Part shown: positions 7,425-48,029 of the stretch, in pieces | Layout of the letters: the number at the start of each line of letters is the position of its first letter | Numbering within the stretch: the first letter of the stretch is position 1 | Assembly (NCBI GenBank): GCA_016782885.1 | Contig: JADHXQ010000003.1 | Coordinates: 18,316 to 82,315 of the forward strand | DNA: 64,000 bases | Direction of reading: 5' to 3' | Source: Phycisphaerae bacterium | Lineage (GTDB): Bacteria; Planctomycetota; Phycisphaerae; SM23-33 | The notes under the pieces: model-generated | Told to the model about the DNA's origin: nothing | The model's input: only the letters and a program-made list of their open reading frames with translations | Databases searched by the model: none | Program-made: the position numbers and the translations under genes

Positions 7425-7447
7425 CATCCCAAACCAGGAGAGGTCGC

Positions 7448-9058: not shown

Positions 9059-9081
9059 CGCCCAAAGCCAGGAAAGATTGC

Positions 9082-10851: not shown

Positions 10852-12214
10852 CCAGACAGACACAAAGAAAAGCTGGACCGCCGCCATCCCCGGCGGGTCG
10901 CGCGATCTGCAGGTCATCGATGGCAATAAGGTCCTCGTCAGCCACGGTAACGGCGCGGGCGAATACGATCTGGCTACGGGCAAGAAGCTATGGGCGATCG
11001 ATTCGTTTACAGGCATCAACTCCGCCCGTCGCCTGGACGACGGAAACACGCTGCTCGGCGGGAGCGGGAAGGGTGGAATAACCATCTACACCGCAGACCG
11101 CACGGGCAAGACGCTCGGCGAGTTGGTCCTCAAGGGCCTGCGGGACCTTCGCCTGATGCGGCGCCTGAAGAACGGAAACATCCTGCTGACCGTCGGCGGA
11201 CCCTATCGGGTTATCGAAGTCGACACCAGGGGGAAGATCGTCTGGCAGGCTAAGATTCCGGGCAAGGGATACAAAGCCGTCCGCCTTCCGTGCGGTAATA
11301 CTTTGGTATCGACAGCCAGCGCCGCGGTGATCGTCGAACTCGACGCAGATGGCAAGATCGTATTCTCGGTGGGCGGAAAGAAGGAACATCCGAATATTCT
11401 GCTGGACTGCTTCTCCGGTTTCGACACACTGCCTAACGGTAACGTGGTCGTCGCCAACTGGCTGGGACACGGTAATATGGGCAAGGGCGGCCAGCACCTC
11501 ATCGAGTTCGATCGCAAGAACAAAGTGGTCTGGACATGGGGCGACAACAAGACAGCAAAGGTGCTCACCAACCTGCTGATCGTGGACGATGTGAAGCAAT
11601 CAACACCCGCCGCCGCCACCCCCGCCGTCGCTGGTGAATGGACCGCCCTGTTCGACGGTAAGACGCTCGAGGGCTGGACCAACCCCTACAAGTGGGGCAA
11701 GGCGTCGGTCGTCGACGGAGAAATCCACCTCACGACCACCAGGTCCAAGTTCTTCCTGACCACCGCCAAACAGTACGCCGACTTCATATTCGAAGTTGAA
11801 GTCAAGATGCCCGAAGGCAAGAGCAACTCCGGATTCATGTTCCGCTGCCACCAGCAGCCCAACAAGGTCTTCGGGTACCAGGCCGAGGTCGACCCGTCAG
11901 ACCGCAAGTGGTCCGGCGGCCTGTACGATGAGGGACGGCGCGGATGGCTTTATCCCGACAAGAAGAAGAAAGAAACGATTGGGGCCTTCCGCAAGAACGC
12001 GGGCGACAGCTTCAAACGCGACGACTGGAACAAGTACCGTATCGAATGCGTCGGTGACAGCCTGAAGATATCCGTCAACGGCGTCCAGACAACCGACTTC
12101 AAGGACTCCACCGACGCCCAGGGATATCTCGCCCTGCAGCATCACGGCGAGAGGGGCAAGATTTACCGATTCAGGAACATCCGCGTAAAGGTCCTCAAAG
12201 CCGCCAAGGAGTAG
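10718..12214 (+). CDS. secreted two-domain protein with an N-terminal beta-propeller-like domain and a C-terminal DUF1080 (3-keto-disaccharide hydrolase-like, LamG fold) domain
   Basis: Signal peptide MKSSLVRIIAFLAVTVAFA with a GGGAG ribosome-binding site 8 nt upstream. The C-terminal region (EWTALFDGKTLEGW...NSGFMFR...GYQAEVD...WNKYRIECVGDSLKISVNGVQT...GYLALQHHG...IRFRNIRVK) matches the DUF1080 signature. Confidence 0.75.
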   Translation: MKSSLVRIIAFLAVTVAFASTARTADVAHKFLGVDNKANNLIYVDQTDTKKSWTAAIPGGSRDLQVIDGNKVLVSHGNGAGEYDLATGKKLWAIDSFTGINSARRLDDGNTLLGGSGKGGITIYTADRTGKTLGELVLKGLRDLRLMRRLKNGNILLTVGGPYRVIEVDTRGKIVWQAKIPGKGYKAVRLPCGNTLVSTASAAVIVELDADGKIVFSVGGKKEHPNILLDCFSGFDTLPNGNVVVANWLGHGNMGKGGQHLIEFDRKNKVVWTWGDNKTAKVLTNLLIVDDVKQSTPAAATPAVAGEWTALFDGKTLEGWTNPYKWGKASVVDGEIHLTTTRSKFFLTTAKQYADFIFEVEVKMPEGKSNSGFMFRCHQQPNKVFGYQAEVDPSDRKWSGGLYDEGRRGWLYPDKKKKETIGAFRKNAGDSFKRDDWNKYRIECVGDSLKISVNGVQTTDFKDSTDAQGYLALQHHGERGKIYRFRNIRVKVLKAAKE

Positions 12215-15393: not shown

Positions 15394-17286
15394 TCATTTC
15401 TTTACGGGCGTGATCTTCAGCGTGACCGTCGCTTCGGTCACTGGGGCTTTTAGTGCAATGCCTATTCGCGTCGGGAGCGTCTTGGTCCTGACGTCTTCCT
15501 TGATTTGTTCGGACTTAATATCAAACGCGACGCCGCCGGTGTCGATCTCGACGCGGAGGCTCTGCCCGCCATCGCTGACGATTATCGCGTTACGACCGCT
15601 GCGTTCCCACTTGCCCAGCGTAATCATGGCCGTTTCGAAGGACGTTGGCTTGCTGAAGGCGGCATCATCGCGAACCGTCAGCGACCCCGCGGCCGCACGG
15701 GAATAGACAAACGTCCTGTTTAGTTTGGTTAGCTGCGGTACTCTCTTGGCGTATGCCGAACGGATGTCCAGAACCAGCGTGTCGGCGTCGTCGGTGAATT
15801 TCGTTTTGACGACAACTCCTTTGGCGCCCGACCCGCTCTGCTGGAGCTTACCGGCGATGCGGGGCACGGGATGGCCCAGCGAATTCAGCACGCCGCTGAC
15901 ATAGCGTTTGGAACTGAACGTCCGCGCGGTATACACCTCGGCACCGGGGTCGACGAGTACCGGCGTCTTGCCGGCGACTACCACGTACGATCCGACATCG
16001 TTGTGATTGTGATGCTCGCCATTGTGCCCGCCCTTGAGCGCGACGCCTACGACGCATTTCGACTTGGGCGTCGGGCGACAGATGAGCACGCCGGCCTTGT
16101 CGAACCACGTTCGCACGCCCGGACCGGCGGCGGCATGGCCTCTATGGATGGCGCTGATCGAACTGGGGAATGAGAATATCATCGATATGGGCAATCGCCC
16201 TTTGAAGCTTATCAGCATCTTATCGCCGTCCGGGTCAGCGCCGAGCGAGTATCGGCGCGACAGAAAATGCACCATATCCAACGACGCCCGGGCGCTAACC
16301 GAGCAGTCGGCAAACGCGGGCGACACGCCGTTGATGATTTCGATACGCCGGGGGAACATCGCCGGGGTCCGGACGTTCTGTGCCTCCATCATGTCTATCC
16401 GCCCGCCGGTGGCCTGCCAGATCGTTTCAGCCAACTGCACGTAATTCCCAAACCCGTACGACCAGTAGCCCAGCCCCTCGCTGCAGTATCCGTCGGACGT
16501 GAAACCGGCCAGGAAGCTCTTGGAGTATTTCATCGCCGCCGCCACGTATTTTGCCCGCTCCGCCCGCGATTCGATCGTCGCCAGGGCGGCGCCGGTGACG
16601 CCGGCGAGGCACACCGCGTTCCAGTTGTTCGTGGTCGACATCCACCAGTTCGCCCGCCGTTTACCGCTGACCATCCCCATGTACGGATCGAATATCCGCT
16701 TGCGGAGGTTCTCGTCGATCAGTTTCCGCGTCCTGGCGTCGAGTTTGTCGCCTAGCAGATACCTCGCCGTCGCCAGTTCCCAACCCACATACGAAGACGC
16801 CAGGTCGATGTCGACGGTGCGTCCCTTGAAGTTCGCCAGCGACCTGTCGTGAGCGGGATAAACCCACGTCGGCTCGCTACAGATCGCGGCGATGACCTTC
16901 TGGAGATCGGTGATGAATCGCCCGTGGTTTTCGAGGCACTCAGCCACGGTCAGCAGGCCTATCCGCCCTCGCCGCCGCCCCGCTACCCTCTGCCATCTGT
17001 TCCGATTGCCCGTTCGCGAGAAGTCCAGGTACAGGTCGTCGCTCTGATCCGGCAGAGGCGCGCCGATCAGCTTGGCGGCTGTATCGACGATATCGCGATA
17101 TCCCTCGGTTTTCGCCAGAGCCTTCCAGGCCGTCCGATCGGCGGCCGGTCGCCCGAGACCGGCAGGCTTTGCCGGAAGGAACTCGGCGATGTTGGGCGCC
17201 TCAGCCGCCAACACACCAGCAGACGTAACCGCCAACACCGCCGCCATAATGCCTGTTATCCGTAAGATACGCTTGATCTTCCGCAT
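15394..17286 (-). CDS. heparinase II/III-like polysaccharide lyase family protein, secreted
   Basis: The C-terminal GGHNGEHHNHNDVGSYVV motif is typical of heparinase II/III-like domains. The start is placed at the internal ATG (17286) that precedes the signal peptide MRKIKRILRITGIMAAVLAVTSAGVLA. The ORF track extends it to 17388. Confidence 0.6.
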   Translation of the reverse strand: MRKIKRILRITGIMAAVLAVTSAGVLAAEAPNIAEFLPAKPAGLGRPAADRTAWKALAKTEGYRDIVDTAAKLIGAPLPDQSDDLYLDFSRTGNRNRWQRVAGRRRGRIGLLTVAECLENHGRFITDLQKVIAAICSEPTWVYPAHDRSLANFKGRTVDIDLASSYVGWELATARYLLGDKLDARTRKLIDENLRKRIFDPYMGMVSGKRRANWWMSTTNNWNAVCLAGVTGAALATIESRAERAKYVAAAMKYSKSFLAGFTSDGYCSEGLGYWSYGFGNYVQLAETIWQATGGRIDMMEAQNVRTPAMFPRRIEIINGVSPAFADCSVSARASLDMVHFLSRRYSLGADPDGDKMLISFKGRLPISMIFSFPSSISAIHRGHAAAGPGVRTWFDKAGVLICRPTPKSKCVVGVALKGGHNGEHHNHNDVGSYVVVAGKTPVLVDPGAEVYTARTFSSKRYVSGVLNSLGHPVPRIAGKLQQSGSGAKGVVVKTKFTDDADTLVLDIRSAYAKRVPQLTKLNRTFVYSRAAAGSLTVRDDAAFSKPTSFETAMITLGKWERSGRNAIIVSDGGQSLRVEIDTGGVAFDIKSEQIKEDVRTKTLPTRIGIALKAPVTEATVTLKITPVKK

Positions 17287-17361
17287 TTCTGTGTCTCCCG
17301 GTAAGCCCGCAGCGGACCTCTGAGATGATAATAGCCATTTTCCCCGCAGGAGCAAGACTAC

Positions 17362-17410
17362 CATTGCCAATGCGTTATCTGTTATCATAGGTACATTGCA
17401 ATTGCAATAG
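17362..17410. promoter_or_regulatory. ATTGC(N)AAT palindromic motifs in a divergent promoter region
   Basis: cattgccaatg at 17362..17372 and cattgcaattgcaat at 17394..17408, where ATTGCAAT is a perfect palindrome. They lie in the 144-bp AT-richer gap between divergently transcribed genes with starts at 17286 and 17431. Confidence 0.25.
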
Positions 17411-17430
17411 TATAGATTGGGAGTTGAGCT

Positions 17431-20229
17431 ATGATTGCTTGTAGGTTTATGCTGCTGTCATTGGCGACGTTGGTCATGCTGGTCTCGACCGGGAAGGCAG
17501 CCCCTGTTGCTTCGAATACCGCGACGGTGTCGATCTCGGCGCGAGGACCGCTGGCCGCGGGCGCCCTGGGCGAAAACGCCGCAATACACACCAACCGAAC
17601 CTACACGTTCACCAAAGTGCCCAAATTCCTGCAAGGGCTGAAGTTCACCTCGCATCAGCATAATGCCCCTGCGCGTTATACATGCAGCATTAAAACGGCC
17701 GGACGCCTGTATCTCTGCCTGCAGAAACCGTTGACACCCAAGGCGGTCAAACTCACCGGCGACTGGAAGCAGTGCGGAAAGATGGACACCGTTATCAACG
17801 GGAAGAACTATCCGTGGACGGTCTTCAGCATCGACGCCGGGACCGGCCAGACGCTGGCCCTCCCGGCGTCCGACAGGTGGGGCGCCGTTATCGCCGTCGG
17901 AAAGATCGACAACCTCAAAACCGCACCCGCCCGGACCCGCCGTCCCGCGGCCAGAAAATCGGCGCCCGCAAACGACGAATACGGATACCTGCAAAACGAT
18001 ATCAGCAACCGAAAATGGTTCGACCGCATCGCCGATCAGGCCCTTGCCAAAGAAGCATTGATACTGGAATCAGACCGCACTCCGCTCGACGTAGTGCTGC
18101 GGCGAACAGAGGCGCTTGCGACGCGAATCTCCTCGATGGACGGTGCCCCGGATATCACCAGACTCGTCACCGAACTCAAGAGCCTGCGGTCCGAAGCCCC
18201 CGGTCGCGAACTGTTCGACAAGGTCTGCAAACTCCGCCGCAAAATCGCGTTTTCCAACCCGCTGCTGAATTTCGACAAGCTGCTGTTCATCACGCGCCGA
18301 GACCCGGGCGGACCGTTCCACATGTGCGACCAGTTCTACGGCTGCAACGCCAAACCCGGCGGCGGACTGTACGTCCTTTCCGACCCGTTTGGCGCCGAAC
18401 CGAAAGTAACGAACCTGCTGGAAAACTCCGTGGTCCAATCAGGCCGCCTGAAAGGCCAAAAGCTAACCGGCGGTTCGTTCCTCTCGCCCGAACTCTCTTA
18501 CGACGGTAAGACGATCATGTTCGCCTGGACGCAGGCCAAAGCAAAGAAGACCTACACCTGGGGACCCGAGATCAGCTATCATATTTTCAAGTGCAACGCC
18601 GACGGAAGCGGTCTGGTGCAGATCACCGACGGCGACGCCGACGACTTCGACCCGTGCTTCCTGCCCGGCGGGCGGATCGCTTTCATCTCGCTGCGCCGAG
18701 GCGGATACCTTCGTTGCGGACGCCACTGCCCCGTTTACACGATGTTCTCGATGAAGCCCGACGGCTCGGACATCGCCCCGCTGAGCCACCACGAAACGCA
18801 CGAATGGCACCCAAGCGTCGACAACGACGGAATGATCGTCTACACGCGATGGGACTACATCGACCGCGACACCAACGTCGCGCACCATATATGGATATCG
18901 TATCCCGACGGGCGCGACCCGCGGAGCATGCACGGCAACTATCCCATAGACCGCAAGAAACGCCCGTGGATGGAAATGGAAATCCGGGCGATTCCCGGCT
19001 CGCACAGATACGTCGCCGTCACCGGAGCGCATCACGGTAACGCGATCGGCTCGCTTGTGCTGATCGATCAGCGCATCGAAGACGACAACGCCATGAGCCA
19101 GGTCAAACGCCTCACGCCCGAGGCGCCCTTCCCCGAATCGGAAACCAACACCAAAACAGGCATGCGATACGGTACGCCCTGGCCCCTCAACAAAGATTTT
19201 TATCTCTGCGTCCACGATCCGGCCGCCAGGAACCGCGGAATCCACCTGATCGACCGATTCGGTAACCGCGAGTTGATCTACCGAGACCCGTCGATACCGT
19301 GCCTGAGCCCCATCCCGCTGAGGGCGCGACCAAAACCGCCGGTCATCCCCGACCAGACGCAAGATTCCCGCCCGGCCACCGTGGCGGTTATGAACGTATA
19401 CGATGCAGACTTCGAGTGGCCTAAGGATACGAAGATCAAGTCGCTGCGAATCATACAACTGCTTCCGAAATCCACCGCCCCGCCGAACAAGCCTCGAATC
19501 GGGGTAGCCGCCCAAACCAACGCGCGCGCGGTGCTCGGCGACGTACCGGTAGAAGCTGACGGTAGCTGCTACTTCGAGGCCCCGGTCGGAATCCCCATCT
19601 ACTTCCAGGCCCTCGACGCCCGCGGTCTGGCGGTCCAGTCGATGCGGTCATTGACTTACGTTCATCCCGGCGAGCGTCTGACCTGCCTGGGATGCCACGA
19701 ACGCAAGCTCGCCACCCCCAAGGCCAACAAAGCCCCGAGAATGCCGCTGGCGATGAAACGTACGCCATCGAAGATACGCCCTGAAGTCGACGGAGCCAAC
19801 CCGTTCAACTATCCGCGACTCGTCCAACCGGTGCTCGATAAGCATTGCGTAAAATGTCACACCGAGAATAACGCCAAGAAGGACAAGAAGAAAACCGCCC
19901 CCGACCTTCGTAATACCATCACGCGAAACAACGGGTGGACCCAATCGTATGTCTCGCTGGCGAGCAAGTACGGATTCTACTTCCACGTCACCAACGGTTC
20001 GATCAAGAGCGGCGTACACGGCGGGAGCAGATCCATCCCCGGTAAGTTCGGAGCAAAGGCCTCGAAACTCTTCGAGATGCTCGAAAAGGGGCACCACAAG
20101 CTCAAGCTGCCGCCCAAAGACCTCTACCGCCTGACGCTCTGGATCGACTGCAACTCGGAGTTCTACGGCGCCTACTACGACACGCAAAAACAAGCAGCCG
20201 GTGAAATAGTACTCCCCGACCTCCAATAG
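17431..20229 (+). CDS. family member 1: secreted beta-propeller protein with two CxxCH motifs (putative c-type heme) and an N-terminal beta-sandwich module of unknown type
   Basis: Signal peptide. Conserved core blocks include DPCFLPGGRIAFIS, HETHEWHPSVDNDGMIVYTRWDYIDRD and two CxxCH motifs (CLGCHERK; HCVKCHTENNAKKDKK). The N-terminal ~170 aa are homologous to the N-terminus of member 4. Confidence 0.7.
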   Translation: MIACRFMLLSLATLVMLVSTGKAAPVASNTATVSISARGPLAAGALGENAAIHTNRTYTFTKVPKFLQGLKFTSHQHNAPARYTCSIKTAGRLYLCLQKPLTPKAVKLTGDWKQCGKMDTVINGKNYPWTVFSIDAGTGQTLALPASDRWGAVIAVGKIDNLKTAPARTRRPAARKSAPANDEYGYLQNDISNRKWFDRIADQALAKEALILESDRTPLDVVLRRTEALATRISSMDGAPDITRLVTELKSLRSEAPGRELFDKVCKLRRKIAFSNPLLNFDKLLFITRRDPGGPFHMCDQFYGCNAKPGGGLYVLSDPFGAEPKVTNLLENSVVQSGRLKGQKLTGGSFLSPELSYDGKTIMFAWTQAKAKKTYTWGPEISYHIFKCNADGSGLVQITDGDADDFDPCFLPGGRIAFISLRRGGYLRCGRHCPVYTMFSMKPDGSDIAPLSHHETHEWHPSVDNDGMIVYTRWDYIDRDTNVAHHIWISYPDGRDPRSMHGNYPIDRKKRPWMEMEIRAIPGSHRYVAVTGAHHGNAIGSLVLIDQRIEDDNAMSQVKRLTPEAPFPESETNTKTGMRYGTPWPLNKDFYLCVHDPAARNRGIHLIDRFGNRELIYRDPSIPCLSPIPLRARPKPPVIPDQTQDSRPATVAVMNVYDADFEWPKDTKIKSLRIIQLLPKSTAPPNKPRIGVAAQTNARAVLGDVPVEADGSCYFEAPVGIPIYFQALDARGLAVQSMRSLTYVHPGERLTCLGCHERKLATPKANKAPRMPLAMKRTPSKIRPEVDGANPFNYPRLVQPVLDKHCVKCHTENNAKKDKKKTAPDLRNTITRNNGWTQSYVSLASKYGFYFHVTNGSIKSGVHGGSRSIPGKFGAKASKLFEMLEKGHHKLKLPPKDLYRLTLWIDCNSEFYGAYYDTQKQAAGEIVLPDLQ

Positions 20230-20279
20230 CCACCACAAACCAAAACCCACAGCTACCTCATTCGAAAGCAAGAGAATAT

Positions 20280-22607
20280 ATGTACACGGTCCCTGTCATG
20301 CATCACAGAGAGGCTATCGCCCTGGCTTTACTTGCAGCCGCCGTAATGCTGCTCCAGCCCGCCCGGGTCGCCGACGCAAAACGGCCGAAAGCCGGGAAGA
20401 GCGTTCCGCAAGCGCGACACAACGCGGCGATCAAAGACAATCCGCTGATGAACTTCAAGAAGCTCCTGTTCGTCAAGCGGTTCAAGTTCCAGTCGAACCA
20501 CTACTACACCGACTACATCAACGGGTGCAGGAAATTCGGGGGCAACCTGTGCGTCCTGGACATGAAAAGCGGAGATGTAATCGACCTCTGCCCTGAAATG
20601 AAGGAAGGCATCTTCGGACGATTCGACCTGCACTTCGACGCCAGGAAGATAGTGTTCGCCTGGAAGAAACAGCTCGGAGAAGGCTTCCGCCTGTACGAGA
20701 TCGGCATCGACCCCGCGACAGGCAAACGATCCGGAAAAATCCGCCAGGTCACCTTCCCCGCCGACAATGAAGAACAACTGCACAAACTCTACAAGCTCGG
20801 TTACCACCACGGCACCGACGACATGGACCCGTGTTATCTGCCCGACGGCGGCGTGCTCTTCATCTCGACGCGATGCCAATACGGGATCCTCTGTAATGGC
20901 GCAGACGTTCTGACCACCACGCTGCTTTACCGCGTCGACGCCGACGGTAAGAACATGCAGAAGCTCACCAACTCAGCGGTCAGCGAAGCCACGCCGTCGA
21001 TCCTCAACGACGGGCGAATCATGTACACGCGTTGGGAATACGTCGACAAGGGCGCGGTGGCCAACAAGTGCTTGTGGGCGGTCCGACCCGACGGGACCGG
21101 GCAGGTCGAAATCTACGGAAACGCCATCACACTGCCCCCTACGTTCCACCAGGGAAGAGCGATACCCGGTACAAACACCAAGTTCGTTTTCCTGGGCGTA
21201 CCGCACTACCCGCAAAACGGCGTGGGTACGGTTATCCGCATCGACATGACCAAGAACATCCGCACCCGCGAACCGATGACATACATCACCCCCGACGTCG
21301 ACATCCGAGGCGAGGGCGGGTTCTGGCACGATCGCAACTCCAAGTGGGGCGCAAGACGCCTGTTCAAGGAACCGTTCCCGCTGAGCGAAAACCTCTTCCT
21401 GGTCTCCATGAACGTCGACAAGAACTGGAAGCACCCCACCGCCTGGGATATCTGCCTGCTCGACGAATCCGGAGACACCGCGCTGATCCACTCAGATCCG
21501 GATATCGGCCTGTTCCAGCCCATCCCGCTCCGTCCTCGAAAAACACCGCCCATCCTGAAAGGATCTCTCGATCCGAAGCTGGCCAGGCAGAATCTCGCAC
21601 GCTGTGTAGTGACCGACATATACCACGGCATGGAAAATACCCCGCGAGGTTCAATAAAGTACATCCGCATTAACGAACAGGTTCCGCGCCCTTGGGCCGC
21701 ACGACGCAGATGGGGCGGGGACTGCTACGACCAGCAGCACGCCGTTATCAGCAAAGACACCAACCTCGCACTGCGCGTCCAGGTCGGGGTGGTCCCGGTA
21801 GAAAAAGACGGTTCGGCTCACTTCACAGTACCGGCAGACCGGAACATCTTCTTCCAGGCGCTCGATGAAAACTACATGGAAGTGCAACGCGAACGAACGT
21901 GCGTTAACTATCGCCCGGGCGAGTCGCGATCGTGTATCGGATGCCACGAAACGCCAAACGACATCGTCGCGGCGAAAACCAGCGTTGTGATCGCCCTGAA
22001 ACGCCCGCCCTCCAAGCCCGGTCCGCAACCGGGCGAAAAGTCCGGGGCGCGACCCATTGACTACGCCGTAGACGTCCAGCCGGTGCTCGACAAGCACTGC
22101 ATCAAGTGTCACGGCCCCAAGGACGGCAAGAAACCCAAGGGCGGCCTGGACCTGTCGGGAACGCTGACGAGCCTGTTCAGCATCTCGTATGAAAACCTTC
22201 TCCGCGAGCGACGAAGGGGCAAGGGTCGCAGGCGATTCGACCTGTTCCCCACGATCGGCGAGAACCATCCAAAGGCCGGGAACATTAAATACCTGCCCGC
22301 GAGATCGCTCGGTTCACACGCAAGCATCCTGATCGCCATGCACTCGAGGGGAAAGGTCAAACTCAAGGACCCCAAAGCCGCCGAGATCGCCGCCAAACTC
22401 GCCAAGGTACACGAGAAAGGGAAAGTCAACCTGCCGCTCGAAGACATGATCCGCCTGACGACATGGGTGGATGCCAACGGGCAATACTACGGAACCTACT
22501 ACGGGCGAAAGAACCTGAAGTACAAGGACCATCCGAATTTCCGCCCGGTCCCAACGTTCGAAAACGCAAGATCAACCACCGCCCCACTACCCGAAGACAA
22601 GAGATAA
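20280..22607 (+). CDS. family member 2: core-only beta-propeller/di-CxxCH protein with no N-terminal lectin module
   Basis: The signal peptide leads directly into the core (NPLMNFKKLLFVKRFKFQSNHYYTD...). CIGCHETP and HCIKCHGPKDGKKPKGGLDLSG are present. Its core is about 80% identical to member 3. Confidence 0.75.
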   Translation: MYTVPVMHHREAIALALLAAAVMLLQPARVADAKRPKAGKSVPQARHNAAIKDNPLMNFKKLLFVKRFKFQSNHYYTDYINGCRKFGGNLCVLDMKSGDVIDLCPEMKEGIFGRFDLHFDARKIVFAWKKQLGEGFRLYEIGIDPATGKRSGKIRQVTFPADNEEQLHKLYKLGYHHGTDDMDPCYLPDGGVLFISTRCQYGILCNGADVLTTTLLYRVDADGKNMQKLTNSAVSEATPSILNDGRIMYTRWEYVDKGAVANKCLWAVRPDGTGQVEIYGNAITLPPTFHQGRAIPGTNTKFVFLGVPHYPQNGVGTVIRIDMTKNIRTREPMTYITPDVDIRGEGGFWHDRNSKWGARRLFKEPFPLSENLFLVSMNVDKNWKHPTAWDICLLDESGDTALIHSDPDIGLFQPIPLRPRKTPPILKGSLDPKLARQNLARCVVTDIYHGMENTPRGSIKYIRINEQVPRPWAARRRWGGDCYDQQHAVISKDTNLALRVQVGVVPVEKDGSAHFTVPADRNIFFQALDENYMEVQRERTCVNYRPGESRSCIGCHETPNDIVAAKTSVVIALKRPPSKPGPQPGEKSGARPIDYAVDVQPVLDKHCIKCHGPKDGKKPKGGLDLSGTLTSLFSISYENLLRERRRGKGRRRFDLFPTIGENHPKAGNIKYLPARSLGSHASILIAMHSRGKVKLKDPKAAEIAAKLAKVHEKGKVNLPLEDMIRLTTWVDANGQYYGTYYGRKNLKYKDHPNFRPVPTFENARSTTAPLPEDKR

Positions 22608-22642
22608 ACCACGCCAGAAAAGCCCCACAGGAGCAACAACCG

Positions 22643-25600
22643 ATGTCCAAGACAACGATCAGACATATTACCCCACTCGTATTCGTGGTCGTCATTGGCG
22701 CCATGTTCACCGGCGCTGTGGGCGCCGACTACGTCAAAAAGGCCACCTGGGTCGAGTCCATGATCGCCACGCGCGAGGCGATGGTCGGAAAACGCCCCCC
22801 TTCCAAGGCTCCGACCGGCCTGCCGAATCTGGCGAAAGACTCATACACTATCGCCGCGTGGATTTGCACCAAAAGCGGCGGGACGATCTTCGCCAAATGC
22901 CAGCCGAACAGGGGCTGGCAGCGCTTCGGTAAGACCCTTTTCGTCGCCGGCGGGCGAGTCAACATGGATGTACACTCGGCTGGCGTATTCCGAGGAACTT
23001 CAAATGTAGCCGACGGAAAATGGCATCACGTGGCGGTGGCCGGAACGAAAAAGGGACAGACAATCTACGTCGACGGAAAAGCCGAAGCCAAAGGCAATCT
23101 CCGCGGCGATTACGATCCCAAGGGCGCCGTGGGAAAGATCGGGTATACCTCGCCGAACTTCCCGGGGCGAAACTCGTACTTCACCGGCCTGATCGACGAT
23201 ATGCGAATATACAACCGGGCGCTGGGCGAAAAGGAACTCAAGGGCGTCATGACCAAACCCCACTCGCTCGGAGCCAACGGCCTGGCGGGACACTGGCCTT
23301 TCGACTCAGGCGTCCTGGATGCATCGGGCAACAACAACCACGCAACGAGCATGAAAGGCGCCAAGCTCTCTAACGGAAAGATCGGCAGGGCGTTGGACCT
23401 CAACGGGCAGGTTAAGATCCTCCTGGCCGCTCCCGGGCAGAAGCAGAACCCCAACATCCCAATCTGGTCGTTTCTGAGAAAAGCATTCACCGACGACGCG
23501 GCTCGCAATGAAATGACCTGGGAAATCCAGGACGGTATCTGGCGGAACGATTGGAAACCAGGCGATTACGCCGCACTGGCCAAACGCTATGCGACGGCTT
23601 CTCACCGCTCACCGAAACACGCCGAACAGGCCGCAAAACTCGCCAAGGGCGTAGAAGACGCCTCCGCCTTGGCGAAAGTCCGCCAGGCGTACCTGCGATC
23701 GCGAGCCTACGAAAGCGTTATGGAGAAACTCAAGGAACTCGATATCGTCGGCCTGCGGAGAATGCTGGCCAATCTGGCCAAAACGGGCGCAAAGATCGAC
23801 AAGAATCTCGCCCGACTCGATGCGATCGAAACCAGGGCGGTCAAGATGGCCGACACCGAGATCACTCCCGAAGCGATGATCGCGTTCAAAAGGGAAGTTC
23901 AGCAGATCCGCTACGACGCGCTGATAAAGGGCAACCCGCTGATGGATTTCGAGAAGCTCCTGTTCGTCAAGCGATTCAAGTACCAGTCGAACCACTACTA
24001 CACCGACTTCATCAACGGTTGCAGCAAGTTCGGCGGGAATCTGTGCGTCCTGGACCTCAAGAGCGGCGACGTTATCGACCTCATCCCGGAAATGAAGGAA
24101 GGCATCTTCGGACGATTCGACCTGCACTTCAACGCCGACAGAATCGTCTTCGCCTGGAAGGCCGAACGCGAAGAGGGCTTCCGCATCTACGAGGTCCCCA
24201 TCGATCCGAAGACGGGCAAGCGAACCGGCAATGTACGCCAGGTCCTCGCTGCACCGCACAACGAGAAGGATATTCAGAAGAAATACCGAGTCGGTTATCA
24301 CCACGGCACCGACGACATGAACCCGGTCTACCTGCCCGACGGAGGAATAGTGTTCATCTCGTCGCGATGCCAGTACGGCATCCTCTGCGACGGGCCCGAC
24401 ATCTTCTGCACCACGCTGCTTTACCGAATCGACGCCGACGGTAATAACCTGCAGAAGCTCACAAACTCCGCAGTCAGCGAAGCCACTCCCACCATCCTCA
24501 ACGACGGGCGGATCATGTACACCCGCTGGGAGTACCTCGACAAGGGCTCGGTCACCAACAAGTGCCTCTGGGCGGTCCGACCCGACGGTACCGGGCAGGC
24601 CGAAATCTACGGAAGCGACATCGCATACCCCGCATCGTTCCACCAGGGACGGGCGATTCCCGGAACGAACACCAAGTTCGTGTTCCTGGGCGTACCGCAC
24701 TATCCGCAGAACGGCGTGGGCACGGTTATCCGCATCGACATGACCAAGAACATCCGCACCCGCGAGCCGATGACCTACATCACCCCCGACGTAGACGTAC
24801 GCGGACAGGGCGGGTTCTGGCACGATCGTGAAGGCAAGTGGGGCCCCCACCGCCTGTTCAAAGAGCCCTTCCCGCTGAGCGAAGAGTTCTTCCTGGTCTC
24901 GATGAACGTCGAAAAGAACTGGAAGCACCCCACCGCCTGGGACATCTGCCTGCTCAGCGAATCGGGCGACACCGCCGTGATCCACTCGGACCCGGAGATC
25001 GGCGTGTTCCAGCCCATCCCGCTGAAGAAACGCAAAATGCCCGCCATCCTCAAAGGCGCCCTCAACCCCGAGTTGGCGAAAAAGGGCCTGGCGGTCTGCG
25101 TCGTAACCGACATCTACCACGGAATGGAAGACACACCCCGCGGATCGATCAAGTACATCCGCATCAACGAGCAGGTCCCGCGTCCCTGGGCGTCACGCAG
25201 GCGTTGGGGCGGCGACACCTCCGACCAGCAGCACGTGACGATCACGGGCGCAACCCACCTGGGGCTCAAGATCCAGGTCGGCGTGGTCCCGGTCGAGAAA
25301 GACGGATCGGCCCACTTCTACGTGCCGGCCGACAAAAACGTCTTCTTCCAGGCGCTGGATGAAAACTACATGGAAGTGCAGCGTGAACGGACGTGCGTGA
25401 ACTATCGTCCCGGCGAGTCGCGGTCGTGCATGGGCTGCCACGAAACGCCCAACGAGATCGTATCGGCCAGGCAGAAGGTCGTAACCGCCCTGAAGCGCAA
25501 GCCCTCATCGCCCGGACCGCAGCCGGGTGAGAAGTCAGGTTCAAAGCCGCTGTACTATCCCATCGACGTCCAGCCGGTGCTCGACAAGCACTGCATCAAG

Positions 25601-26074
25601 TGCCACAGCCCAAAGGACGGCAAGAAGCCCAAAGCCGATCTGGACCTGTCGGGCACGATGACAACGCTCTTCAGCGTATCCTACGAAAACCTCCTGAAGC
25701 GAAGGAGATACGGTCTGTTCCCAATGATCCGCGAGAACCATCCCAAAGCCGGCAATACGCATTATCTACCGGCAAGATCGCTCGGTTCGCACGCGAGCCT
25801 GCTGATCGCCATGCACTCCAAGGGCAAGGTCAAACTCAAGGACCCCAAACTGGCCGAAGATGCGAAAAAACTCGCAAAGGTGCATGAGAAGGTGAACCTC
25901 CCGCCGGAGGACATGGTCCGCCTGTCGACCTGGGTCGACTCCAACGGACAATACTACGGCAGCTACTACGGACGGCGGAACCTGAAGTACAAGGACCATC
26001 CGAACTTCCGCCCGATCCCGACATTCGAGAGCGCAAGATCGACCACCGCCCCCCTGCCCGAAGACCAGAGATAG
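22643..26074 (+). CDS. family member 3: LamG/concanavalin-like N-terminal domain plus the beta-propeller/di-CxxCH core
   Basis: The start is placed at the ATG at 22643, which has an AGGAG ribosome-binding site and a signal peptide MSKTTIRHITPLVFVVVIGAMFTGAVGA. The N-terminus has LamG-like features (DGKWHHVAV...TIYVDGK...IDDMRIYNRAL). CMGCHETP and HCIKCHSPKDGKKPKADLDLSG are present. Confidence 0.75.
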   Translation: MSKTTIRHITPLVFVVVIGAMFTGAVGADYVKKATWVESMIATREAMVGKRPPSKAPTGLPNLAKDSYTIAAWICTKSGGTIFAKCQPNRGWQRFGKTLFVAGGRVNMDVHSAGVFRGTSNVADGKWHHVAVAGTKKGQTIYVDGKAEAKGNLRGDYDPKGAVGKIGYTSPNFPGRNSYFTGLIDDMRIYNRALGEKELKGVMTKPHSLGANGLAGHWPFDSGVLDASGNNNHATSMKGAKLSNGKIGRALDLNGQVKILLAAPGQKQNPNIPIWSFLRKAFTDDAARNEMTWEIQDGIWRNDWKPGDYAALAKRYATASHRSPKHAEQAAKLAKGVEDASALAKVRQAYLRSRAYESVMEKLKELDIVGLRRMLANLAKTGAKIDKNLARLDAIETRAVKMADTEITPEAMIAFKREVQQIRYDALIKGNPLMDFEKLLFVKRFKYQSNHYYTDFINGCSKFGGNLCVLDLKSGDVIDLIPEMKEGIFGRFDLHFNADRIVFAWKAEREEGFRIYEVPIDPKTGKRTGNVRQVLAAPHNEKDIQKKYRVGYHHGTDDMNPVYLPDGGIVFISSRCQYGILCDGPDIFCTTLLYRIDADGNNLQKLTNSAVSEATPTILNDGRIMYTRWEYLDKGSVTNKCLWAVRPDGTGQAEIYGSDIAYPASFHQGRAIPGTNTKFVFLGVPHYPQNGVGTVIRIDMTKNIRTREPMTYITPDVDVRGQGGFWHDREGKWGPHRLFKEPFPLSEEFFLVSMNVEKNWKHPTAWDICLLSESGDTAVIHSDPEIGVFQPIPLKKRKMPAILKGALNPELAKKGLAVCVVTDIYHGMEDTPRGSIKYIRINEQVPRPWASRRRWGGDTSDQQHVTITGATHLGLKIQVGVVPVEKDGSAHFYVPADKNVFFQALDENYMEVQRERTCVNYRPGESRSCMGCHETPNEIVSARQKVVTALKRKPSSPGPQPGEKSGSKPLYYPIDVQPVLDKHCIKCHSPKDGKKPKADLDLSGTMTTLFSVSYENLLKRRRYGLFPMIRENHPKAGNTHYLPARSLGSHASLLIAMHSKGKVKLKDPKLAEDAKKLAKVHEKVNLPPEDMVRLSTWVDSNGQYYGSYYGRRNLKYKDHPNFRPIPTFESARSTTAPLPEDQR

Positions 26075-26082
26075 TTCGGGTG

Positions 26083-27165
26083 CTAATGGGCCCGGAGAAG
26101 GTCCAGCATTTTGCGGTCCAGTTTGTGGTTTTTGTAGTCTTCGTACTTGACGTCCGTTCGCCCGGAGTCGAGCAGGCCGAACGAGCCTCGGAAATTCCAC
26201 AGCGCCCATCCGAAGTCCGCTTCGGCCCATAGTTCAAGGAGATCGGTCATCCATCGCAGCACCACATCGTGAGGAGTGTATTTGTACGCCCCCCACTCGC
26301 CCACGTGTACGCCCACGCCGGCGGCTGCGAGCTTCTTCCAGGGCTTGATGCGGTTGTCATAAATCCACTGTCGCCCTTCGACGATATCCTTCTTGCCCTG
26401 GCGCCGTTTGAGAGGCCAGGTCGGCGGAGAGCCCCAGTCCTTCCTGCCGGCCCATCCGGCCTTGTAGTGCGAGACCTTGAATGAATCGTACCCGCGAGTG
26501 CTCTGGGCGACGCGGTCCTTGGCTAGTTCCCAGACGGGGTCGCGACCCCATTGGAGACCGTCGGAGATGACGAGGCGAGTCGGATCGATCTTGCGAATGG
26601 CTGCGATGGCGACCTTGGCAGCGGCGGCGTAAGTTTTGGAATCGATTTTGGCAGGCTCGTTCACCAGACCGAAGCTGAGGCGTTTGGACGGGATACCGCG
26701 ATAGCGCTTTGCAAATGCTGCCCACTGGAAGGCAAACTGCTTCTGTGCCTCGGGGTCCTTCCAAAGGTTCAGCTTCTCCGGCGGATGGGCCACAGTGTAG
26801 CCCGGCGCCCGGTGAAGGTTCAGCGATACATGCACGCCGTACTTCTTTCCGAACTCGACGGCCTGGTCGATGTGGGCGAGTATCTTCTCGTCCAGTTTGT
26901 AAGGGTCGGCCGCGCCGGTCCAACAGCGGTAGTCCATCGGCAGGCGGACGAAATCGAAGCCCCAGTCGCTAAGCCACTGAAAATCCGTCTCGACGAACTT
27001 GCGATTCTTGCCCTTGTTGAACTTTTCAAGGAGATTGAATCCTCGCCACCTGGGCAGTTTTGCATGGAGTGCTTTGGCGGCGGTCGGAGCCTTGGCCTGG
27101 GCGAAAACTCCGGCGCCGACCACGACCGCCCCGGCGGCTGACTGGACAAACTCTCGCCTGTTCAT
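26083..27165 (-). CDS. glycoside hydrolase family 5 (cellulase-like), Tat-secreted
   Basis: N-terminal NRREFVQSAAGAVVVGAG. Catalytic acid/base motif LVNEP and nucleophile motif VGEWG at typical GH5 spacing. Confidence 0.75.
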   Translation of the reverse strand: MNRREFVQSAAGAVVVGAGVFAQAKAPTAAKALHAKLPRWRGFNLLEKFNKGKNRKFVETDFQWLSDWGFDFVRLPMDYRCWTGAADPYKLDEKILAHIDQAVEFGKKYGVHVSLNLHRAPGYTVAHPPEKLNLWKDPEAQKQFAFQWAAFAKRYRGIPSKRLSFGLVNEPAKIDSKTYAAAAKVAIAAIRKIDPTRLVISDGLQWGRDPVWELAKDRVAQSTRGYDSFKVSHYKAGWAGRKDWGSPPTWPLKRRQGKKDIVEGRQWIYDNRIKPWKKLAAAGVGVHVGEWGAYKYTPHDVVLRWMTDLLELWAEADFGWALWNFRGSFGLLDSGRTDVKYEDYKNHKLDRKMLDLLRAH

Positions 27166-33650: not shown

Positions 33651-36572
33651 TTACTCGACCGAAGGCATCACCAGCCCGCCTCGGGCCTGTTTTTCGGTCT
33701 CCAGGTATGCGCCGTAGAAGTTCGTGTTGCAGTCGATCCACAGCGTGATGCGGTAAAGCTCTTCGGGGGTGAGTTTCAGGTCGTGGTGCCCTTTGGGGCC
33801 GGTCAGGTGCGCCAGCAGCCTGGAGGCCTTGGCGCCGATCTTGCCCGGAACCGAACGAGAGTTACCGTTCTTGAAGAGCGCTCCGTTTCCGCCCGACTTG
33901 CCCCATCCGTATTTGTGGAGCGTCTCGAACGCCTTGGACCAACCGCCTCGCCCGAACTGCTTGCCGGAAAGGTTGGGAGCCTTTTTCTTCGCATTCTTCA
34001 CGTGGCATGGGAGGCACTTCTTGTCGATCACGGGCTGGACAAGGCGAGGGAACGTCAGCGGGAACGAACCTTCGACGTCAGGCTTGATCTTCGACGGAGG
34101 CCGCTTCAACGCCTGAGCCACCGTCATCTTTCTCTTCGCGCCGGACATGCGCAGCTTGGGCTCGTGGCAGCCCTGGCAGGCGAGCTGTTCGCTTTCGTGA
34201 ACGTAGGTGTTTGACTTCATCGACTGGATGGCCTGTCCCTGGGCATCGAGGGCCTGGAAGTAGATCGGAACACCGACCGGGGCTTCGAAGTATACGCTTC
34301 CGTCGGACTCGACGGGCACGGTCCCCAGCACACCGCGAGCCAGCGACTGTGCGGCAAGTCCGATCGCCGGTTGATTGGCGTTGTGGGTGGCCTTGGGGAA
34401 CAGTTGCACAATACGCATGGAAGTCACTTTCGCCCCTTCAGGCCACTTGAAATCGCTGTCGTAAATGTTCATCACCGAAATAGTGGCCGGACGCTTGGGC
34501 ATCAGGGCCTTGTCCTCGACCGCCTGGGTAGTCATTGACGGAATGATCCTCGGTTTGGTTCGCGGACGAAGCGGGATCGGGTCGAGGCACGGTACGCTCG
34601 GATCGCGATAGAGTATCTCCCTGTTACCGAAGCTGTCCATCAGGCACAGCGCGTAATGCCTCTGTCCCGGATCGTAGACGCACAGGTAGTAGTCTTCGCT
34701 GAGAGGCCAGGGCTGGCCGTAAACTTCACCGCCGTTGTTCCTGCCTCTGCCCAGGGCAATACCGGGGATCTTCTCGGATTCAGTGAGTTGCACGTCGGGC
34801 GTGATTCGTTTGAGCTGGCTCATGGCGTTGTCGTCCGGGATCTGGTGGTCGATGAGCACCATCGATCCGTAGTTCTGCCCGTGGTGCGGCGCCGAGACGC
34901 CGATGTAACGGTGCGATCCGGGGATGGCGCGGTTCGCCAACTCCATCCACGGGCGCATTTCGCGCCTGATGGGATAGTTTCCGTGGTAGCTTCTGGCGTC
35001 GCGCCCGTCAGGATACGTCACCCATATATGGTGGGCGATGTCGCTGTCGCGGTCCACATAGTCCCATCGCGAATAGACGATCATCCCGTTGTTGTCGACG
35101 CTGGGATGCCACTCGTTGGTCTCGTGATAGCTGATGGGGATAATGTCGCTCCCGTCGTCCCTCATCGTGTGGAGCGTGTAGGTCGGCACGGGGCGCCCGT
35201 GACATCGCCCGAACCCGCCGCGGCGTTCGGAAATAAACACTATCCTCCCGCTCGGCAGGAAGCACGGGTCGAAATCGTTGGTCTTCCCGTCGGTCAGTTG
35301 CGTCAGGTTGACCGGCTTGCCGGGTGCTATGTTGGCTTTGAATATGTGATACGTGCTCTGCTCGGACCACTTGTACTTCGTGTTGAGAGCCTCGGTCCAC
35401 GCGAACAGGATGGTCTTTGCGTCGTAGCTCAACTCGAGCGACATGTGCGAACCTTCGGCCAGGGTCTTGCCCTTGAGGCGCCCGTTCCGGATCTTCTCTC
35501 CCTTCAGAAGGTCGCGAGCGACAGGCTTGTCGCTGAAGGCGTTTTCAAGGACGTAGATGCTCCCGCCCTTCCTGGCGTGAAAACCGAAGTACTGGTCGCA
35601 CATGTGCCCGTGCGTCTTGTGGTGCGTGGCGAAAATGATCTTGTCGAAATTGACCAGGGGATTCGAAAACGCGATCTGTCTGCGGACCTTGCAGATCTCG
35701 GCGAACAGTTTCTTGCGTGCGTCCGCGTCGTCAACCGGAACCTGGGCGGCCTGCGTTTTGAATCCCGCCAACTGCGCAGAGTGTTTCGACAGGTCCGGGG
35801 CGTCTTTCATCTTCTTGATATCTTCGAGAAGCGCCGCAGTTCTCCTCAGGACCACGTCTACCGGGTCGCGGTCTTCCATAAACAGGAGAGCAGGCTTGCG
35901 GAACACTTCCGCCGCCAGGCGGTCGTAATGATCTCCGCCGGCTTTGCGAACCCTGAGACGACCGGCGATCAGACCGAATTCATCGTCCAGGGAACCGCCC
36001 GGCGCACGCGAGTGCGATCGGGAGCGGGAAGCGGATTTGCGGGCCTTGGAGAGAGTCGGAAGCTTCGTTTTGCCCGCCTCGATCTTACCGGCGACCACAA
36101 CCGCTCCCCACTTGCCCGCCGAGCCGATAGCAAACTTCTGACCGTTCGTAAAATCACACTGGAAAACCGTCCAGGAGTTGCTTCCATTGGCGTCGCCGCC
36201 GGTCATCTTACCGGCCTCTTTCCACTCACCGGGCGCCTTGAGACTGGCCGGGGTCAGACCGTCGGTCAGGCAGACGTACATTCGCCCGCCGACCTTGACG
36301 GAACCCGAAACGCTCACGGACTCCTTGTGCGGGTGCGAGATGTAATTGAGACCCTGGAGACATTTGGGGACTTTCGTGAAAGCGTAATCGCGATTGGAGT
36401 TGACCAGCGCCCGTTCACCCATCTTTCCGGCGGCCAGTTTCTTGTTGCCCTGCACGGTGATTTCAGCGTGCGAGCAGGCGACTTCGGCCTGCACAAACAG
36501 CAACGGGGCAAGCCCCAGCAGTACGGCCGATATGACGATCAGTTTCCACTGGTTAATCCTGAGATAACTCAT
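33651..36572 (-). CDS. family member 4: N-terminal beta-sandwich (like member 1) plus the beta-propeller/di-CxxCH core
   Basis: The start is placed at the ATG at 36572, which has an AGGAGA ribosome-binding site and a signal peptide MSYLRINQWKLIVISAVLLGLAPLLFVQA. CQGCHEPK and KCLPCHVKNAKKKAPNLSG are present. It ends 8 bp before the sulfatase gene on the same strand. Confidence 0.7.
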   Translation of the reverse strand: MSYLRINQWKLIVISAVLLGLAPLLFVQAEVACSHAEITVQGNKKLAAGKMGERALVNSNRDYAFTKVPKCLQGLNYISHPHKESVSVSGSVKVGGRMYVCLTDGLTPASLKAPGEWKEAGKMTGGDANGSNSWTVFQCDFTNGQKFAIGSAGKWGAVVVAGKIEAGKTKLPTLSKARKSASRSRSHSRAPGGSLDDEFGLIAGRLRVRKAGGDHYDRLAAEVFRKPALLFMEDRDPVDVVLRRTAALLEDIKKMKDAPDLSKHSAQLAGFKTQAAQVPVDDADARKKLFAEICKVRRQIAFSNPLVNFDKIIFATHHKTHGHMCDQYFGFHARKGGSIYVLENAFSDKPVARDLLKGEKIRNGRLKGKTLAEGSHMSLELSYDAKTILFAWTEALNTKYKWSEQSTYHIFKANIAPGKPVNLTQLTDGKTNDFDPCFLPSGRIVFISERRGGFGRCHGRPVPTYTLHTMRDDGSDIIPISYHETNEWHPSVDNNGMIVYSRWDYVDRDSDIAHHIWVTYPDGRDARSYHGNYPIRREMRPWMELANRAIPGSHRYIGVSAPHHGQNYGSMVLIDHQIPDDNAMSQLKRITPDVQLTESEKIPGIALGRGRNNGGEVYGQPWPLSEDYYLCVYDPGQRHYALCLMDSFGNREILYRDPSVPCLDPIPLRPRTKPRIIPSMTTQAVEDKALMPKRPATISVMNIYDSDFKWPEGAKVTSMRIVQLFPKATHNANQPAIGLAAQSLARGVLGTVPVESDGSVYFEAPVGVPIYFQALDAQGQAIQSMKSNTYVHESEQLACQGCHEPKLRMSGAKRKMTVAQALKRPPSKIKPDVEGSFPLTFPRLVQPVIDKKCLPCHVKNAKKKAPNLSGKQFGRGGWSKAFETLHKYGWGKSGGNGALFKNGNSRSVPGKIGAKASRLLAHLTGPKGHHDLKLTPEELYRITLWIDCNTNFYGAYLETEKQARGGLVMPSVE

Positions 36573-36808
36573 GCATGACTCTCCTGGTAGGTTCGGTTCG
36601 CATAATAACAAGCGTATTATACTCCTATCATAACGTTTATTGAAACCTATTCCTTGCCTGTTACTGTAATATCGCCCGTTCTGGGAATACAGAATAGGGA
36701 ATACGGAGTCTTGCGAAACGTTACACTATGCGTATGATGCACGGACTGTCGAAAGACGAATAAACAACCGTAGCCCATTCGGACTGCACTGCACAAGGAG
36801 ACTCACCC

Positions 36809-47800: not shown

Positions 47801-48029
47801 AGCCCTTGCCCAATTCGATGACGGTCAGGCTGTTGGCGTGCGTGCCCAGCCCGCGTTTAAACGTTTTCGATCCGATCCGCATCGGTTGGGACATGAAGCT
47901 CTTGTCCAGTTGGAGAGTCCGGTGGTCCTGGCGGTGTGCGACAACCTTGAACGGCGCGGGGTCCGCTGCATCGGCAGCGATGCTCGCGACAAGGAGCAGA
48001 CCAAGACAAATGTATCGCAGCATGTCCAT
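44892..48029 (-). CDS. family member 5: NPCBM-like N-terminal domain plus the beta-propeller/di-CxxCH core
   Basis: Signal peptide MDMLRYICLGLLLVASIAADA. NPCBM hallmarks GLGTHANS...GSVVFIV...GDHADWADARI. Core motifs CVGCHEDQ and NCGKCHQGKGKGREKLDMT. Confidence 0.75.
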   Translation of the reverse strand: MDMLRYICLGLLLVASIAADAADPAPFKVVAHRQDHRTLQLDKSFMSQPMRIGSKTFKRGLGTHANSLTVIELGKGCKLFKCQVGADLNGPTRAAGGSVVFIVRTDGRERYRSKILKPGDEPLAVSVDLSKARKLELITDVSIKGFTGDHADWADARIAMIGGKDVYISEQIRRQKPLAKAPSLPPAPRTGPVEPETRSLTAEEAKAQLHAEWLFQAEGKPPAQRAIQEIVWARDIAARLAETAKPPKLTADLATLDALEKKLNSLPAKVDTKVCEELYFAVRQAKRKIMFADPLVDFSSMLFVDVPERYPHESMHRVYPQAQLNCVRLLVLDGLSPAGKLRKLTDKLPAGWYWRPDLSFDGKRVLFCFRPKSDRTFHLYETSLDASTTAPRQLTSGSYDDLDPIYMPSGHIVFVSNRGASHARCTVGHPSTVVARCDADGKNIYLISGGNEPEYTPALMPNGQILYTRWEYTDKELMRIQSLWTVNPDGTGTNAFWGNQSYWPDMLVEARVIPGSGRAMFSGQGHHNVYWGSIGIVDPKKGRNYPDGLTKVTWDVPWCEVGNGPAERPETAKYHTSGAYRGYKSPYPLSEEVFLVSARASGRSSKFKLFLMDVYGNRELIYESAFHALYGLPIRSRKVPPVIPDRVAWAGAQKDRAEIRPGVFFCADVYQGAPKILKDKAKYLRVIQLDWNTATLGKKLQDVDHPRAQPHLHVGPVVSLAVNDGVKHVLGTVPIKKDGSVYFEAPPCRSLHFQLLDEHHRTLQTMRSFTNVMPGEVRGCVGCHEDQDLAPTARSGPAMKGAPSRLTAYPWGAGYSFGYERDIQPILDKNCGKCHQGKGKGREKLDMTLRASKDMGVFPEPYVTLVLGKKRRGGSFVRDCSGGAAGTILAQPLPWRPETYKTIAPMTTLSYKSKLVANAMSGKHNKVKVDSLSALKLIMWVDLLCPYRGEQELRAMADPDPKDPMFARSNYPPSDVTITDVYAQSPYRPRMATAPIVNRAYRQDEFPSTESRLPKDANGKILPSVTFGPDGQRIINTSDGVAKPH

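Follow-up and report, generated by a model that had tools for sequence, protein, structure and literature searches.

Old tandem HzsA-like paralogs in a dynamic array of a Phycisphaerae bacterium, one of which has lost its LamG-containing N-terminal module

The DNA analyzed here (the window) is a stretch of 64,000 nucleotides from contig JADHXQ010000003.1 of the Phycisphaerae bacterium assembly GCA_016782885.1 (positions 18,316 to 82,315 of the forward strand), and all positions below are counted from its first letter. The genes in question form a head-to-tail array encoding proteins related to HzsA, the alpha subunit of hydrazine synthase. The first gene, m1, is followed by two closely related paralogs, m2 and m3, which share a core and differ by an N-terminal region containing a laminin G-like (LamG) domain. 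The features of the array are as follows.

17431..20229, plus strand: m1, a 932-amino-acid HzsA-like paralog with a different N-terminal module; stop codon at 20227-20229
20230..20279, plus strand: m1-m2 spacer of 50 bp with a GAGAA/GGAG region resembling a ribosome-binding site
20280..22607, plus strand: m2, the short paralog (775 amino acids), with a signal peptide and HzsA-like core, lacking LamG and the helical domain
21933..21947, plus strand: first haem-c motif of m2, CIGCH (residues 552-556), aligned to CSGCH of HzsA
22098..22112, plus strand: second haem-c motif of m2, CIKCH (residues 607-611), aligned to CAMCH of HzsA
22463..22642, plus strand: spurious 5' extension of the m3 open reading frame, overlapping the 3' end of m2 and lying outside the gene
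22643..26074, plus strand: m3, the long paralog (1143 amino acids), with a signal peptide, LamG, helical domain and HzsA-like core
22814..23437, plus strand: LamG-type beta-sandwich of m3 (residues ~58-265)
23438..23929, plus strand: eight-helix domain of m3 (residues 266-429)
23891..26071, plus strand: core of m3 (residues 417-1143), with a beta-propeller, HZS_alpha middle domain (residues 834-934) and C-terminal haem domain
25427-25441 (residues 929-933) and 25592-25606 (residues 984-988), plus strand: CxxCH motifs of m3
26083..27165, minus strand: GH5 glycoside hydrolase, marking the downstream limit of the array, as it also does in relatives

The m3 open reading frame was listed at 22463-26074 (plus strand), a start that reflects mechanical extension of the frame. 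The true start is the ATG at 22643, which has a GGAG 9 nt upstream, and the 1143-amino-acid product also results from gene calls made independently in public assemblies. The signal peptide of m2 covers residues ~1-33 and ends in PARVADA. The order 932/775/1143/GH5 was assembled independently in four metagenome assemblies deposited in ENA, indicating that the arrangement is not an assembly artefact. Upstream, m1 is the neighbor of the array in all related loci, and its product is 27-30% identical to those of m2 and m3. Judging from the spacers of 50 bp and 35 bp, m2 is probably co-transcribed with m1 and m3; a promoter and terminator scan of 17200-26400 returned zero plus-strand sites, with counts at or below shuffle levels.

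BLASTP aligns residues 40-775 of m2 with residues 417-1143 of m3 at 580 of 736 identities (79%) with 9 gaps, and a codon alignment of the core (726 codons) gives a nucleotide identity of 79.7%, with 84%, 91% and 64% at codon positions 1, 2 and 3. An earlier sequence-only reading of this DNA (the initial annotation) had put the core identity at ~80% and described m2 as a signal peptide joined almost directly to the core. Both points agree with these alignments, the two peptide runs that it quoted are identical in both proteins, and the nucleotide comparison that it proposed as a check yields a DNA identity matching that of the proteins. The extra region of m3 is present as claimed, but at 416 amino acids before the core, against 39 in m2, it is smaller than the ~450 stated, and the supposed coiled or helical linker is helical and constitutes an eight-helix domain (residues 266-429), of which m2 retains only the last half-helix, corresponding to m3 from residue 417. 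The near-identical DNA stretches were overstated, the longest exact runs being 44, 42 and 38 bp. A mis-called m2 start concealing an upstream LamG region is impossible, since the m1 stop codon lies 50 bp before the m2 ATG. Within the core, the part that differs most between short and long copies lies at 20595-20840 in m2 (residues ~106-186) and 24089-24330 in m3 (residues 483-563), where amino acid identity is ~60% compared with 80-100% elsewhere, a pattern seen in all short-long pairs; this segment may be the propeller surface that once contacted the lost N-terminal module.

The products of m2, m3 and m1 match PF18582 (HZS_alpha) at 80.3, 77.6 and 75.4 bits, respectively (gathering score 26.6). 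Laminin_G_3 (PF13385) matches m3 at residues 61-199 with 72.7 bits (gathering score 27.6) and has no match in m2, bearing out the description of m2 and m3 as tandem paralogs set apart by an N-terminal module with LamG. As modeled by AlphaFold, m3 (mean predicted local distance difference test score, pLDDT, 85; predicted template modeling score, pTM, 0.71) comprises, in order, a signal helix, a beta-sandwich (residues 68-261, with strands mostly at pLDDT 80-96), eight helices (residues 271-429), a beta-propeller, a middle domain and a C-terminal helical domain. In Foldseek comparisons, the LamG part matches pentraxin, LamG, BACOVA_03559 and carbohydrate-binding structures, and the best PDB match of the whole model is HzsA (5c2v_A; E = 2.7e-29, target-normalized TM-score 0.61 over ~830 columns, 16% identity). 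Both CxxCH motifs are invariant in 68 homologs and align with the two haem motifs of HzsA. On the basis of sequence and model, m2 and m3 are predicted to be secreted HzsA-like dihaem beta-propeller proteins, with haem attachment at these motifs likewise a prediction.

Like HzsA of anammox bacteria (PDB 5C2V), these proteins have the same order of folds and two CxxCH motifs at aligned positions; unlike it, they are only 15-16% identical to it, reside in a context of glycan degradation rather than anammox and, in m3, carry additional LamG and helical modules. The NCBIfam hydrazine synthase alpha equivalog model NF052339 scores 43.7 (m3), 63.4 (m2) and 42.4 bits (m1) over the middle-domain stretch only, against a cutoff of 800, and no Pfam match to the HzsB or HzsC (beta or gamma) subunits occurs among the 36 window proteins scanned, indicating that these are not hydrazine synthases. 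The six HzsA-like proteins of the window (m1-m6) instead belong with the "HZS_alpha domain-containing" or "HzsA-related" proteins of non-anammox bacteria of the Planctomycetes-Verrucomicrobia-Chlamydiae (PVC) group, from which they differ in nothing essential. Their relatives span Planctomycetota, Kiritimatiellia, Lentisphaerota and Verrucomicrobiota, and proteins identical to those of the window are annotated as originating from Phycisphaerae metagenome-assembled genomes (MAGs). A 2025 study described hundreds of widespread "HZS_alpha domain-containing" homologs, none with an experimentally confirmed function (PMC12758564), and a literature search found no functional study of non-anammox HzsA homologs. 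In addition, the LamG domain of m3 (22814-23437, residues 58-265) looks circularly permuted: the PF13385 match covers residues 61-199 only, and the usual LamG opening segment (GLAGHWPFD...DASGNNNHA...GRALDLNG) follows at residues 210-261 in predicted beta-strands, an order that is conserved in the family consensus.

The direction of the change in module content is given by homologs and synteny. A search with m3 recovered more than 45 full-length homologs with LamG, helical domain and core (1104-1187 amino acids), down to 41-52% identity, together with scattered shorter forms. In a neighbor-joining tree of 95 proteins (688 core columns, 100 bootstraps), the short forms (m2, P0012, P0014 and P0015) form a clade with bootstrap 100, nested in a further bootstrap-100 clade with long forms and with "mid" forms that retain the helical domain without LamG. 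The successive outgroups (P0009, P0010/11, P0030/32/33 and P0013/16/31) are all long, each with 416-460 amino acids before the core, and in the syntenic single-copy relatives (L001-3, L005/6 and L007) m1 is followed by a long form. These patterns indicate that the module was lost in m2 and not gained in m3, which answers the question of gain or loss posed in the initial annotation. A 795-amino-acid gene after P0005 (L001-L003) was considered as a positional short copy and rejected, as it has no similarity to the family; these genomes are single-copy. Elsewhere in the family, P0047 (L095 794-3037) and P0065 (L096 8001-10403) represent independent N-terminal truncations, both adjoining sulfatase genes and both sister to long forms. 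P0065 has 91 amino acids before the core, retains a Y-x-K-x-A-T-W motif and ~60 amino acids of helix, and is the sister of the long P0025 (bootstrap 99); P0047 consists of signal peptide and core, and its upstream DNA, checked for frameshifted LamG remnants, contains none.

The two copies are old. Between the m2 and m3 cores, synonymous divergence (dS) is ~0.75-0.76 and nonsynonymous divergence (dN) ~0.13 (0.128), both estimated by NG86; pS below denotes synonymous difference. Between the window and the L010 orthologs, dS is 0.55 for m1, 0.60 for the short copy and 0.46 for the long or mid copy, and for L011/L012 it is 0.77-0.79 for m1 and 0.82-0.92 for the short copy, so the paralog value equals or exceeds much of the between-species ortholog range (0.46-0.92). 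A short copy lies directly after the m1 ortholog in L004/L010, in L011, in L012 and in a 105-kb JGI contig. The paralog and ortholog dS values, together with these syntenic short copies, indicate that the m2-m3 split is at least as old as the species-level genome splits, which refutes the very recent date given in the initial annotation. The dN/dS ratio is ~0.17 between the paralogs and ~0.08-0.13 between orthologs, showing that both copies are held by purifying selection, and short-copy orthologs are 85-95% identical across genomes.

Among close relatives, one, two or three copies follow m1. The 105-kb contig (JGI 3300072015, with proteins P0015, P0122 and P0150) carries, after m1, a short form of 758 amino acids, a long form of 1147 amino acids with LamG and a mid form of 942 amino acids, followed by GH5, and L004 and L010 carry a short and then a mid form. 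The mid form corresponds to a clean excision of m3 residues ~58-265 (LamG), with the signal peptide and a diverged helical domain retained; P0008, a candidate fourth architecture, proved to be a truncated call of the mid form. Mosaic genes occur in relatives: in P0005 and P0142, core residues 46-240 are nearer to the long forms (83-89% versus 75-80% identity to the short forms), and residues 241-775 are nearer to the short forms (85-90% versus 81-87%). Of the 50 nucleotide sites at which short and long forms are fixed for different states, P0005 is short-type at 5 and long-type at 12 in its first part, and short-type at 26 and long-type at 7 thereafter (max-chi-square permutation test, p = 0.006). 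For m2 and m3 in the window, sliding-window identity and the informative-site max-chi-square test revealed no significant gene conversion, the informative sites of m2 (52 short-type and 14 long-type) showing no significant clustering (p = 0.21). Low pS in core residues 241-390 was rejected as a conversion tract, as orthologous comparisons are low there too. The recombination or gene conversion anticipated in the initial annotation is therefore seen in the hybrid genes of relatives and in the hybrid-looking m3, but not, at a significant level, as conversion between m2 and m3 here.

P0039 (L090 821-2950, on a 3.8-kb contig of ENA ERZ24794679) encodes 709 amino acids in which a diverged LamG runs straight into a core of the short type (91% identity to m2 from residue 257) that lacks about half of the propeller, and is followed by ParD/ParE genes; it was not used as evidence, being an assembly chimera or a dead gene. 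Just past the array in the relative L004 (17696-22250) lies a giant gene, called at 4556 amino acids and extending beyond the locus, in which Laminin_G_3 and L-type lectin domains recur.

The most economical model for m2, and the most likely one from the sequences compared, is duplication of a whole gene and, later, an internal deletion that kept the reading frame. The gene that originally followed m1 encoded a long form with signal peptide, LamG, eight-helix domain and core, and would have been duplicated in tandem in its entirety, including the spacer with its ribosome-binding site. The upstream copy would then have lost ~380 codons, the whole stretch from the signal peptide up to the final half-helix in front of the propeller, giving rise to m2, and a third copy, downstream of the long one, would have lost LamG alone, producing the mid form of 942 amino acids. 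These events would have preceded the divergence of the four known short-copy genomes (dS ~0.6-0.9). In the other short-copy genomes, L011 being the clearest case, the m1-short spacer can be aligned with its counterpart between m1 and the long form of single-copy genomes. Both spacers contain a GGAG(C/T)AA motif, which also occurs before the downstream long copy, indicating that the ribosome-binding site was duplicated along with the gene. Short and long signal peptides alike end in PAR(V/A)AD. A partial duplication truncated at the 5' end would place the truncated copy downstream, and the order short-then-long is therefore incompatible with such an event.

The long gene of the window itself may also be a product of recombination. 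Where four mid and five long proteins are fixed for different residues (29 sites), m3 is of the long type at 21 of 21 sites in residues 43-415 and of the mid type at 8 of 8 sites in residues 661-1053. Measured against the mid form of L010, the pS of m3 falls from 0.67 in the helical domain to 0.40 in the proximal and 0.32 in the distal core; against true long orthologs it is uniform over the length of the gene. From these patterns, m3 appears to combine a long-type N-terminus with a core of the mid type, and the simplest derivation of the two genes of the window would be an unequal crossover between the cores of the long and mid genes of the three-gene array, turning short/long/mid into short/long::mid. 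Such a history resembles the textbook hybrids formed by unequal crossover in tandem arrays, in that the array is head-to-tail, the cores are ~80-93% identical and the 5' and 3' parts have different closest relatives; it differs in that the events here are ancient and deduced from diverged metagenomic sequences, with no recent or recurrent exchange visible in this genome.

Collectively, m2 and m3 are in all likelihood old tandem paralogs within a dynamic array, in which m2 has lost its LamG module and recombination has left its mark on the relatives and probably on m3. Several points weigh against this reading. The tree is a neighbor-joining tree only, its node joining P0005 to the short clade has a bootstrap of 54, and the single-copy L005 and L007 group with the long clade instead of falling outside both clades, which may reflect either an older duplication with later loss of the short copy or a faster-evolving short copy. 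The comparison draws throughout on MAGs and metagenome contigs. The homology of signal peptides and spacers on which the internal deletion rests spans short stretches, and alignment of 20230-20400 at the start of m2 with the N-terminal coding DNA of m3 detected no remnant (Smith-Waterman score 23 versus 20 ± 2.3 for shuffles). The case for a hybrid m3 depends on 8 diagnostic core residues and on dS heterogeneity estimated in a fast-evolving segment, and the "species" order behind it is taken from one gene, m1.

Of the alternatives, the one with the most in its favor concerns m3 alone: m3 may not be a crossover hybrid, the mid forms instead descending from an m3-like long gene whose helical domain diverged fast after the loss of LamG. 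This is possible, if clearly less probable than a crossover. The pattern of a long-type N-terminus and a mid-type core at diagnostic sites would also be expected if m3 were merely the sister of the mid clade, and core bootstraps within the long/mid clade are low (31-57). However, the same deletion is present both in L010, the nearest relative of the window, and in the P0015-type genome, which is more distant; this implies that it predates the window lineage. In addition, the helical-domain pS between m3 and the L010 mid form is twice that of the core (0.67 versus 0.32), a difference not predicted from relaxed protein constraint alone.

The short copy could also be a xenolog, inserted beside the long gene by recombination with DNA of a related genome. 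The long and mid cores, single-copy genomes included, are all united in one clade to which the short clade does not belong, and the hybrid genes show that recombination occurs among these sequences. Against this, position, orientation and flanking spacer are the same in four of four short-copy genomes, the divergence of the short copy tracks that of the neighboring m1, and a higher rate of protein change in the short copy (dN 0.075, against 0.036 for the same genome pair) can account for its basal placement, which together make a foreign origin unlikely.

Acquisition of the LamG and helical module by m3, through domain accretion after duplication of a core-only gene, would be in keeping with the core-only proteins of ~750 amino acids scattered through the family and with its many alternative N-terminal modules, namely NPCBM (m5 and m6), F5/8-C and FGE-sulfatase. 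It is nevertheless very improbable, given that the LamG-helical layout can be aligned end to end in homologs down to 41% identity and that the long forms occupy the successive outgroups and the single-copy syntenic loci. Equally hard to sustain is the claim of the initial annotation that the duplication is very recent, caught just after a domain gain or loss, with near-identical DNA promoting gene conversion. The genes are adjacent on the same strand with 80% nucleotide identity and a few identical runs of 38-44 bp, and pS in core residues 241-390 is 0.31 for the window pair, compared with 0.41-0.42 in other short-long pairs. A recent tandem duplicate should show low dS and have no second copy in sister genomes, but here dS is ~0.75, third-position identity is 64%, both copies have orthologs in other species-level genomes, and syntenic short-copy orthologs exist in three further genomes; as for conversion, the lack of significant site clustering and the low pS between orthologs too in that region, noted above, speak against it. 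That m2 is spurious or degenerating, whether through a wrongly called start, a chimeric assembly or pseudogenization, as its lack of two domains present in its closest relatives and the non-functional-looking truncated LamG::core gene P0039 in the same metagenome series might suggest, is scarcely credible for an intact reading frame with its own signal peptide and ribosome-binding-site spacer, an identical 775-amino-acid product on four independently assembled contigs, orthologs 85-95% identical at a dN/dS of ~0.1 and both haem motifs intact.

Favoring old paralogs with loss of the module in m2, the evolutionary event is an ordinary one, in which one of two old tandem paralogs has lost a domain, and it provides a new and well-resolved example in a known but uncharacterized family, adding a documented case of paralogs that lose and swap N-terminal modules. 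One HzsA-like core present in closely related genomes in three states (LamG plus helical, helical only and none), together with hybrids, amounts to a clean natural experiment. The three states fix the module boundaries precisely and reveal that the core is viable and under selection without its front end, thereby marking the latter as an accessory module, probably for targeting, which is of value for expressing and characterizing the widespread non-anammox HzsA homologs.

The array is part of a larger set, the 64-kb window containing six HzsA-like (PF18582) paralogs with varied front ends. The remaining three are located as follows.

33654-36611, minus strand: m4
44892-48029, minus strand: m5
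55748-59053: m6

An unknown module is shared by m1 and m4, which are 50% identical to each other; m2 has no front end, m3 has LamG, and m5 and m6 have NPCBM/NEW2. These paralogs sit among GH5, sulfatase, heparinase-like, DUF1080, PQQ-propeller and DUF1559 genes. The arrangement recalls modular carbohydrate-active enzymes with carbohydrate-binding or lectin modules, where a constant core is combined with interchangeable N-terminal beta-sandwich modules (LamG in m3, NPCBM in m5 and m6), but the core here is a dihaem HzsA-like protein and not a glycoside hydrolase, and glycan binding by LamG is presumed. The LamG and helical modules probably direct or anchor the shared core, itself a putative secreted dihaem redox module, to a ligand on glycans or in the cell envelope, and m2 would be the untethered version of that core. 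A more speculative and rather doubtful extension is that dihaem propellers with swappable glycan-binding front ends (LamG, NPCBM, helical-only or none) represent an uncharacterized class of secreted redox enzymes acting on sulfated or complex polysaccharides in PVC bacteria. If so, the short/long/mid array would be a natural deletion series tuning the delivery site of the same chemistry, and would offer the first functional handle on the large non-anammox HzsA family.

Upstream of the array, three tandem PQQ_2-type beta-propeller genes (5847-7424, 7448-9058 and 9082-10851) are followed by a fusion of a propeller with DUF1080 (3-keto-disaccharide hydrolase), and this tandem family (5847-12214) is conserved in relatives. 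At the other end of the window, an open reading frame at 59229-60242, adjoining the sixth HzsA-like paralog, encodes an IS200-like Y1 transposase together with a DnaA C-terminal helix-turn-helix domain.

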